Source of the DNA: a virus
Taxonomy: Duplodnaviria > Heunggongvirae > Uroviricota > Caudoviricetes
Length of the DNA: 15,828 nt
Virus record (IMG/VR): IMGVR_UViG_2700989170_000009
Reading direction: 5' to 3' (one strand)
Part shown: one piece after another, positions 13,224 through 13,532 of the stretch
Numbering within the stretch: position 1 is the stretch's first letter
How the letters are laid out: each line of letters starts with the position of its first letter
The notes under the pieces: model-generated
Told to the model about the DNA's origin: nothing
Database searches by the model: none
What the model saw: the letters and a program-made list of their open reading frames with translations, nothing else
Program-made: the position numbers and the translations under genes

Positions 13224-13352
13224 AACGGCTCCTAGTTTACGTTGTTGGTTAGAAGCCCCGTTACTGCTCCTACAGTGCGGGGCTTTGCTTTTTGTGTTGA
13301 TTGTGTGTAATGTGTCACTACACATAAATACATTACCTGAGGTGTAATTAAC

Positions 13353-13532
13353 GTGTCAACACACAAAAACGAAAGGCGTGGTAATCCTCCGTTCCAGTTC
13401 CGTTTAGATCCTGACTTACGGGAAAAGATGGAAAAGGCACAACAACAGGACGGCGATGATTCTCTTGCTGCCTGGATAAAGCGAATAATCCGCAAAGAAT
13501 TACAGCAACGCGGCATAGAACCCAAAGGATAA
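13353..13532 (+). CDS. Arc/MetJ-type ribbon-helix-helix transcriptional regulator (59 aa)
   Basis: Not in the supplied ORF track (below its length cutoff). GTG at 13353 with GAGGTG 8 nt upstream. Translation PFQFRLDPDLREKMEKAQQQDGDDSLAAWIKRIIRKEL has the beta-strand / helix / helix layout of Arc-like repressors. Divergent from the minus-strand operon. Confidence 0.5.
   Translation: MSTHKNERRGNPPFQFRLDPDLREKMEKAQQQDGDDSLAAWIKRIIRKELQQRGIEPKG

Follow-up and report, generated by a model that had tools for sequence, protein, structure and literature searches.

A ribbon-helix-helix gene, an operator-like palindrome and a predicted antisense RNA at the head of the replication/packaging operon of a Gram-negative phage-inducible island

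The island and its divergent control region

The window (the whole stretch of DNA that was analysed, 15,828 nucleotides) starts within phoQ and continues into an island whose genes are all directed leftward. They encode TerL, TerS, HNH, portal, S78 protease, capsid, D5-type primase and DUF4222 proteins, and beyond DUF4222 lie small open reading frames (ORFs), an Icd-like gene, alpA and a tyrosine integrase gene. This gene set is that of a capsid-forming PICI. Across the region, the window has 100% identity to a Shigella flexneri chromosome (CP182556.1, locus L004). EcCICFT073, the prototype Gram-negative PICI, occupies the roxA/phoQ site, as does the island in the window, and has the same order of genes: int, alpA, a small plus-strand gene, the Icd-like gene, DUF4222 and the primase gene. 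In 66 loci representing approx. 60 species, the ribbon-helix-helix (RHH) gene is found on the strand opposite to a primase-containing operon, and wherever the flank is long enough its other side is occupied by alpA and int. Thus, the synteny int-alpA-(RHH>)(<icd...primase), in which a regulator gene faces the replication/packaging operon, is kept in many loci and in EcCICFT073. The features of the control region are collected in Table 1.

Table 1. Features in and around the control region (window coordinates unless an accession is given)
Feature	Position	Strand	Description
icd-like gene, first of the leftward operon	13023-13223	-	66 aa from the most plausible start, ATG 13223
P_as, predicted antisense-RNA promoter	13182-13210	+	TTGTGT-17 bp-TATGAT
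Predicted cis-antisense RNA, ~78 nt	13217-13295	+	SL1 + SL2 terminator
P_R, predicted RHH promoter	13285-13313	+	TTGCTT-17 bp-TAATGT
Exchangeable cassette (candidate operator, predicted promoters, RHH gene)	13296-13538		alignment with EcCICFT073
Candidate RHH operator block	13307-13337		GTAATGTGTcactACACATaaatACATTAC; outer inverted repeat GTAATGTGT/ATACATTAC
Core palindrome	13310-13325		ATGTGTcactACACAT (ATGTGT-N4-ACACAT); exact, unique in the window
P_L, predicted operon promoter	13330-13359	-	TTGACA-18 bp-TAATGT
RHH gene	13353-13532	+	GTG start, 59 aa, SD GAGGTG 13339-13344
Hairpin with 12-bp stem, right after the RHH stop	13542-13568	+	terminator-like in scan
alpA-upstream repeats	14277-14283; 14287-14293		ATGTGTC; TTGTGTC; overlap the predicted P_alpA -10
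Antisense-RNA counterpart in CFT073	NC_004431.1 1380770-1380851	-	

Several structural genes of the window (approx. 4560-4600, 5600-5720 and 7230-7330) contain masked runs of N, which appear as X in the translations. Moreover, the major capsid gene (7813-9018) is interrupted by a stop codon (8143-8145), which leaves two neighbouring ORFs in the same frame that cover positions 1-166 and 169-278 of the Phage_capsid profile; with its capsid gene split, the satellite of this strain may not produce capsids of its own.

The first gene of the leftward operon matches the NCBIfam model NF033153 (phage_ICD_like) with an E-value of 1.6e-17, the match spanning residues 51-94 of a longer ORF. Its start lies most plausibly at the ATG at 13223, preceded by the Shine-Dalgarno (SD) sequence AGGAG (complement of 13229-13233), and RefSeq carries a 198-nt Icd-like CDS at this position. 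With this start, the intergenic stretch between the icd-like and RHH genes spans 13224-13352. The first-pass annotation, which placed the RHH gene divergently from the minus-strand operon across a shared region of 130 bp, was thus correct in layout, the region being 129 bp long and conserved in position. An inverted repeat (CACACAAA/TTTGTGTG, 13168-13188) lies within the icd-like ORF and overlaps the -35 hexamer of P_as; it is terminator-like on the minus strand, where it is followed by GCGTTTTCTG, and may be a site of premature termination.

The 59-aa ORF that the same annotation had drawn on the plus strand is indeed present, and RefSeq carries the identical protein (WP_000103622.1) under inconsistent names, either 'hypothetical' or 'YlcI/YnfO family protein'. 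Clustered at 90% identity, the homologues fall into 117 groups, almost all of 55-71 aa, from Enterobacterales, Orbaceae and Pasteurellaceae; an exhaustive profile search gathers just 61 clusters at 50% identity. In comparisons with eleven genera, pN ranges from 0.03 to 0.13 at saturated pS (0.7-1.0), from which it follows that the ORF is translated and constrained. Both the conservation and the translation assumed for this small ORF are therefore borne out by its homologues and by purifying selection.

The alignment of homologues displays the RHH signature, that is, a short strand of alternating pattern, a helix, a DGDxS (GxS) turn and a second helix, and the 59-aa protein has the topology of the RHH superfamily (strand-helix-turn(G-x-S/T/N)-helix, approx. 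45 residues). In an AF2 monomer model, helices at residues 20-33 and 38-52 are predicted with pLDDT above 90, and the N-terminus is unstructured, with no β-strand. The structural neighbours of the protein are RHH folds, among them Arc, at 15-16% identity. At the level of sequence, a Pfam scan of the window protein gives no match, not even to Arc at E<=1, and a profile search of PDB sequences finds nothing meaningful. Two weak NCBIfam matches, to YlcI_YnfO_N (E 5e-4) and VapB (0.012), lie below cut-off; in particular, the score for the YlcI/YnfO family NF041551 is 20 bits against a curated cut-off of 30, and 7 of 30 homologues touch DUF3950 weakly. The HMM search that had been proposed against RHH families thus leaves the window protein itself without a Pfam match, but distant members of its own HMM family reach Pfam HicB above cut-off (30.1 bits; cut-off 21) and also weakly match RHH_1, NikA-like and TacA1. 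Because the alignment pattern, the selection, the fold matches and these transitive HMM matches agree, we accept the protein as a conserved RHH protein, presumably a dimer or tetramer; the label 'Arc-like' holds as a statement about fold alone.

Two classes of the protein are distinguished in the alignment, which have the C-terminal half in common and differ in the DNA-reading strand. The strand is RRGNPPFQFRLDP (N-terminal 'GNPPFQFRL') in class sf1 and GKGNKQIA(L/F)RVEP in class sf2. In some Citrobacter and Kosakonia islands (L026, L034, L051 and L056, approx. 2450-3450 in each), two tandem RHH paralogues of different strand classes lie behind a single antisense-RNA unit (see below). In the papers searched, the protein is named solely as 'YlcI/YnfO, prophage-associated', and neither the literature on YlcI/YnfO/DUF3950 nor that on RHH proteins in PICIs yielded a characterisation of it. 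The 'repressor' of the EcCIMP1 paper is a PerC-like protein, other than the product of the RHH gene.

Opposed promoters, the palindrome and an exchangeable cassette

Promoters were assigned by a PWM scan across all loci of both protein classes. The predicted operon promoter P_L has a perfect -35 hexamer, TTGACA (complement of 13354-13359), that overlaps the RHH start at codons 1-3; its -10 hexamer is the complement of 13330-13335, and the predicted transcription start site (approx. 13323) falls within the palindrome. A perfect TTGACA is found at this site in nearly every locus, followed 16-18 bp on by a -10 hexamer that reads TGTAAT or TAATGT in sf1 and TATAGT, TATATT or TATGTT in sf2, with scores of 10-16. 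Moreover, TGTCAA, the complement of the -35 hexamer, is conserved even in loci that start translation at a downstream ATG, presumably because the predicted P_L -35 lies there. The predicted RHH promoter P_R has its -35 hexamer (13285-13290) inside the U-tract of a terminator described below and its -10 hexamer at 13308-13313, with a predicted start at approx. 13320. The best plus-strand promoter sits at this position in most loci of both classes, with scores of 6-11, and the 'TTG' immediately after the terminator stem is conserved. PWM scores are moderate for P_R and for the sf1 -10 of P_L, and a generic promoter scan of the window called neither P_L nor P_R. An operon promoter picked by hand, TTTATG-17-CACAAT, was superseded by the scan across loci.

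With these positions, the two promoters are predicted to face each other, and the palindrome, flanked by their -10 hexamers and spanning both predicted start sites, would occupy the classic position of a repressor. The divergent layout claimed earlier therefore holds for the gene and the operon, but their predicted promoters overlap face to face and are not simply arranged back to back.

The palindrome ATGTGT-N4-ACACAT had been correctly located by the first-pass annotation; it is exact and occurs once in the window, where 0.02 occurrences would be expected by chance, even with one mismatch. That annotation had also described phased tgtgtt, tgtgtg and tgtgtcac repeats. TGTGT units do start at 13293, 13302 and 13311, in a 9-bp phase, but the upstream two (13293-13307) are not conserved, and only the palindrome and the flanking GTAAT/ACATTAC are kept across genera. 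WTGTGT is not enriched in the window as a whole (24 copies against 17.6 +/- 4.2), and five copies lie inside 13292-13366. An alignment of the 140 nt upstream of the gene, from 38 sf1 loci that are not identical and represent many genera, has three conserved non-coding blocks: 13307-13337 (GTAATgTGTcAt.ACACAtaaa.ACAtTAc), which is the best conserved, gtgTAaTt (13343-13350) and TGTCAAcACACA (13354-13365). (A)TGTGT-N4-ACACA(T) is present at a fixed distance in all 42 loci of the sf1 (GNPPFQFRL) class. Its place is taken by TGTCATACACTTG or GTGTCAGACAC in sf2 loci and by TATTGCAATA in Pasteurellaceae loci, and CFT073 has two 13-bp direct repeats (AGGTGTGGCCCAC), which lie around its own P_L-like promoter, and another palindrome.

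The comparison with EcCICFT073 shows how operator and gene travel together. Identity is high up to the terminator U-tract (13295), is absent inside the cassette and resumes at 13539 with CAGCGCCGTGG, just past the RHH stop codon; thus, the candidate operator and the gene have been swapped as one cassette. Its borders are the predicted sRNA terminator on the left and, on the right, the hairpin at 13542-13568, a probable terminator that is kept in CFT073 despite the different RHH allele. The positional equivalent of the RHH gene in EcCICFT073 bears the RefSeq name YlcI/YnfO, and a profile comparison aligns the two proteins in the same register at an E-value (0.095) that is not significant. The palindrome accordingly behaves as had been expected of an operator, in that it does not vary within the GNPPFQFRL class, differs from the repeats of the other classes and has been exchanged together with the gene. 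However, the covariation of palindrome and strand class could reflect linkage and not recognition, and the inverted repeat could partly derive from two opposed -10 hexamers.

Similar repeats upstream of alpA overlap the -10 of a predicted alpA promoter (TTGCCA-17-CACAAT, region 14277-14314), and they had been taken as further operators of the RHH protein. This part of the earlier reading fails. The alpA-upstream repeats are kept in CFT073, where alpA is 95% identical to that of the window and the RHH allele is unrelated; loci of the same RHH class (sf1) in other genera have divergent alpA alleles (35-54% identity) and no TGTGTC repeats upstream. These comparisons show that the repeats go with alpA and not with the RHH gene, and the palindrome in turn is independent of the alpA allele. 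The repeats are probably alpA's autoregulatory site or promoter, ATGTGTC and TTGTGTC being candidate sites of AlpA autoregulation. AlpA is known to activate its own promoter and the downstream genes, and it is both necessary and sufficient for induction of EcCICFT073 (PMC6092414).

A predicted antisense RNA ending at the hairpin

The hairpin that the first-pass annotation had placed at 13253-13285 is formed by an 8-bp stem, in which AAGCCCCG (13253-13260) pairs with CGGGGCTT (13278-13285), and an inner ACTG/CAGT stem. The structure is present as annotated, but its features are those of a conserved terminator, with a U-tract, covariation and plus-strand G.U pairs, and not those of an operator element. 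Such a hairpin occurs in approx. 58 of 64 loci with a dG of -18 to -29 kcal/mol, always 60-67 nt ahead of the RHH start and with a T-run on the plus strand only, and RNAalifold detects compensatory changes in 7 of 10 pairs of its stem. Together with its U-tract, it corresponds to SL2 (13252-13286), the predicted intrinsic terminator of an RNA that begins with a second stem-loop, SL1 (13218-13250). The RNA would cover the ATG (13221-13223) and the SD (13229-13233) of the icd-like gene, and the SL1 loop, GCUCCUAGUUUA, carries the anti-SD CUCCU; the loops of other loci carry CCUC or CUCC. The terminator loop CUCCUA had been considered as a conserved anti-SD and was dropped, since that loop is not conserved and the anti-SD is carried by SL1.

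Several results point to selection on this structure. The plus strand of 13217-13295 folds with an MFE of -30.4 kcal/mol (z -3.8), and in the predicted fold a conserved TGGT pairs with AGCCA in SL1. Across the 19 pairs of SL1 and SL2, pairing is found in 93.1% of cells (47 distinct sequences), with double changes at 13 of 19 pairs; none of 500 shuffles reaches this value, and slid controls give 38-55%. G.U cells number 112 when the plus strand is read and 10 when the minus strand is read, an asymmetry which indicates that the selected structure is that of a plus-strand RNA. When a covariance model was built from the alignment, it retrieved loci that had been held out, CFT073 among them (51 bits); it has a single match in the window and yields high scores in held-out loci only on the strand of the predicted RNA.

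A promoter for this RNA, P_as, is predicted inside codons 5-14 of the icd-like gene, with hexamers at 13182-13187 and 13205-13210. The hexamer TAnnnT is present in all 54 analysable loci and ends approx. 36-37 nt before a conserved GGTTAGA, at a spacing that is fixed wherever the start codon of the first gene lies. In particular, the A2 of the -10 corresponds to a wobble T in 48 loci, and the codons concerned are of eight kinds (CAT, TCT, AGT, CGT, GAT, GGT, TGT and TAT). At the level of sequence, the RNA thus has the hallmarks of a cis-antisense RNA: a promoter and intrinsic terminator of its own on the strand opposite to its target, overlap with the translation initiation region and complementary bases in a predicted loop. 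From these features, we conclude that the hairpin serves as the intrinsic terminator for a predicted, conserved antisense RNA made from the plus strand. An RNA of the c4/CI type on the same strand as its target was rejected because of the plus-strand G.U pairs, the orientation of the T-run and the lack of a match of the covariance model in phage P4. Rfam, searched over 12800-14600 at the gathering threshold and also at E<=10, yielded no family, C4, P4 CI and IsrK being absent; the lone match was a sub-threshold, terminator-type one to rnk_pseudo. No description of the RNA was found in the literature on icd antisense RNA.

The first operon gene varies among loci and may be Icd-like, encode a 120-aa protein or be a primase fusion, so the antisense RNA and the leader behave as a portable module. 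In the Xenorhabdus loci (L022-L031, approx. 1500-2870), this gene opens with the Icd-like N-terminus MADTQHNQTRPKF and runs on into a primase-like protein longer than 500 aa, apparently as a fusion in which the 5' end targeted by the predicted sRNA is retained.

Proposed silencing of the leftward operon and comparison with known systems

Judging from these features, their conservation, the covariation, the fold and the cassette exchange, we consider it reasonably probable that the RHH protein and the antisense RNA are two silencers of the satellite's leftward replication/packaging operon, placed within approx. 180 bp ahead of it. The RHH protein would bind ATGTGT-N4-ACACAT and the flanking GTAATGT repeats (13307-13337). 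As this candidate operator lies between the -10 hexamers and over both predicted starts, the bound protein should shut the strong P_L and autoregulate P_R. The RNA of approx. 78 nt would be made constitutively from the promoter in the first icd-like codons, end at the hairpin and be fully complementary to the approx. 100-nt P_L leader, with the anti-SD in its loop. It would keep the icd-like gene from being translated and would probably also silence the operon through polarity or cleavage, the downstream silencing being proposed by analogy with P1 c4/icd and P4. A possible override is read-through from P_alpA across the bidirectional terminator predicted at 13858-13893 and the RHH gene. As induction depends on AlpA, the master switch may be another than the RHH protein. 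The control region is a plausible immunity switch of the island, as had first been suggested. A wider reading is offered tentatively, and we hold it to be possible but doubtful: the RHH-operator cassette and the RNA would constitute the system of immunity in Gram-negative PICIs and cf-PICIs, EcCICFT073 among them, with cassette alleles as immunity groups and with induction by AlpA-dependent read-through from P_alpA. Such helper-triggered read-through would run antisense across the RHH gene and P_R into the operon, and would in one step shut off the repressor and bypass the sRNA-targeted leader.

Other explanations of the same features were weighed. The RHH protein might be an autoregulator or accessory factor (solitary antitoxin-like, or partition/omega-like), with silencing due to the antisense RNA and the need for AlpA. 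The matches of distant relatives to the antitoxin-type RHH families HicB, TacA1 and VapB agree with such a role, as do the sufficiency of AlpA for induction and the failure of the generic scan to call P_L. However, the gene has no conserved downstream partner (in Xenorhabdus, the very next gene is alpA), the palindrome covers the predicted P_L start and adjoins the -10 of P_L, not just P_R, and the geometry with a consensus operon -35 is fixed in two protein classes; we regard this role as unlikely. That the 'operator' is a promoter artefact, its inverted repeats arising from the symmetry of opposed promoters with TAATGT -10s on both strands, appears more unlikely still, though both predicted -10 hexamers do fall on the outer repeat GTAATGT/ACATTAC. 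ACACAT, the right arm of the inner repeat (13320-13325), lies outside both hexamers and is invariant in 42 loci, other classes combine the same promoter layout with palindromes of their own, and in CFT073 direct repeats surround the P_L-like promoter.

The hairpin could alternatively act in the minus-strand leader, as a 5' stabiliser or an RNase P-type signal like those of P4 CI and P1 c4, with no antisense RNA at all. It does lie inside the predicted P_L leader, on the minus strand it is followed by a conserved ACCA, and that strand folds as well (-24 kcal/mol, z -2.6). Against this, the G.U count favours the plus strand, on which pairing reaches 92-95% compared with 80-86% on the minus strand; the T-run and the universal upstream -10 are features of the plus strand; pairing with AGCCA in SL1 explains the conserved ACCA/TGGT; and C4/IsrK-type Rfam matches are missing, all of which makes a leader function very improbable. 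Finally, the TGTGT-type repeats here and upstream of alpA might be sites of AlpA activation to which the RHH protein is irrelevant, in keeping with the activity of AlpA on its own promoter and downstream genes (PMC6092414) and with the similar TGTGTC units at P_alpA (14277-14293). We give this idea hardly any credence, since the same RHH class and palindrome occur with alpA alleles of 35-54% identity and unrelated upstream sequences, and CFT073 retains the alpA-upstream repeats without the palindrome.

The closest analogue of the proposed two-silencer arrangement is the immI region of Salmonella phage P22, in which the RHH repressors Arc and Mnt, the overlapping promoters Pant and Pmnt and the antisense RNA sar control an antirepressor. 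Both systems combine small RHH repressors (here a single, putative one) with palindromic operators inside tightly overlapping opposed promoters (here predicted) and a short cis-antisense RNA that has its own promoter and terminator and, in the first of the regulated genes, overlaps the ribosome-binding site. The comparison is functional and no homology is claimed: the two show no sequence relationship, and Arc is only a fold match to the 59-aa protein. Moreover, there is one RHH gene here instead of two, and the proposed target is a satellite replication/packaging operon and not an antirepressor. The predicted layout also differs in that the sRNA U-tract doubles as the P_R -35 and the operon -35 overlaps the repressor start codon.

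In the immI regions of P1 and P7, the order is c4 antisense RNA, icd and ant, and P4 immunity relies on the CI RNA; the genes for c4 and CI lie on the strand of their targets, and these RNAs act through short loop complementarities after processing by RNase P. With these systems, the present one would share an icd-type first gene targeted by a small RNA, with downstream silencing presumably via polarity, and RNA-based immunity (here predicted) in the P4-like/PICI lineage. The predicted RNA differs in being cis-antisense and fully complementary, without an Rfam C4/IsrK match, and P4 has neither the RHH gene nor a match to the antisense-RNA covariance model. The Stl/Rpr regulators of Gram-positive PICIs (SaPIs) are alike in the position of the regulator gene, opposite to the replication/packaging operon with a short control region in between, and in the expectation that allelic diversity sets specificity (PMC6092414). 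However, Stl proteins are HTH repressors of large size that a helper-phage protein binds and inactivates, in contrast to the 59-aa RHH protein, to which an antisense RNA (predicted) and the requirement of AlpA for induction are added here. YlcI/YnfO proteins (NF041551; Pfam DUF3950) are small prophage proteins of the same size with a predicted RHH-type pattern; the window protein scores below the family cut-off and relatively few homologues touch DUF3950, and the papers searched describe no function for the family.

The components are therefore of known kinds, and their application in a satellite, the cassette structure and the RNA family appear to be undescribed. In the published model of Gram-negative PICIs, the only regulator is AlpA, acting as an activator, and the global repressor is stated to be 'unclear' (PMC6092414); in the literature on inducers of EcCICFT073, no characterisation of the RHH gene or of the RNA was found. 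The RHH gene, the palindrome and the RNA are good candidates for this 'missing repressor'. The candidate system is present in the prototype island, there with a different RHH allele, and in approx. 60 species across Enterobacterales, Orbaceae and Pasteurellaceae. Cassette alleles may set cross-immunity among co-resident satellites. Moreover, reporter constructs or 'intergenic' deletions made in this region would hit the overlapping predicted promoters, the start codon and the sRNA together.

Between the RHH gene and alpA lies a strong hairpin at 13858-13893 (GGCGGCTCC...GGGGCCGC), flanked by an A-run and a T-run, which looks like a bidirectional terminator separating the convergent RHH unit and alpA; the longer ORF that crosses it (13657-13986) is doubtful for this reason. 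A small ORF at 13590-13766, downstream of the RHH gene, encodes a very basic 58-aa protein with a KRRRRKK motif, named 'hypothetical' in RefSeq. It was not found in other genera, and it is shared with CFT073, where it lies outside the swapped cassette.
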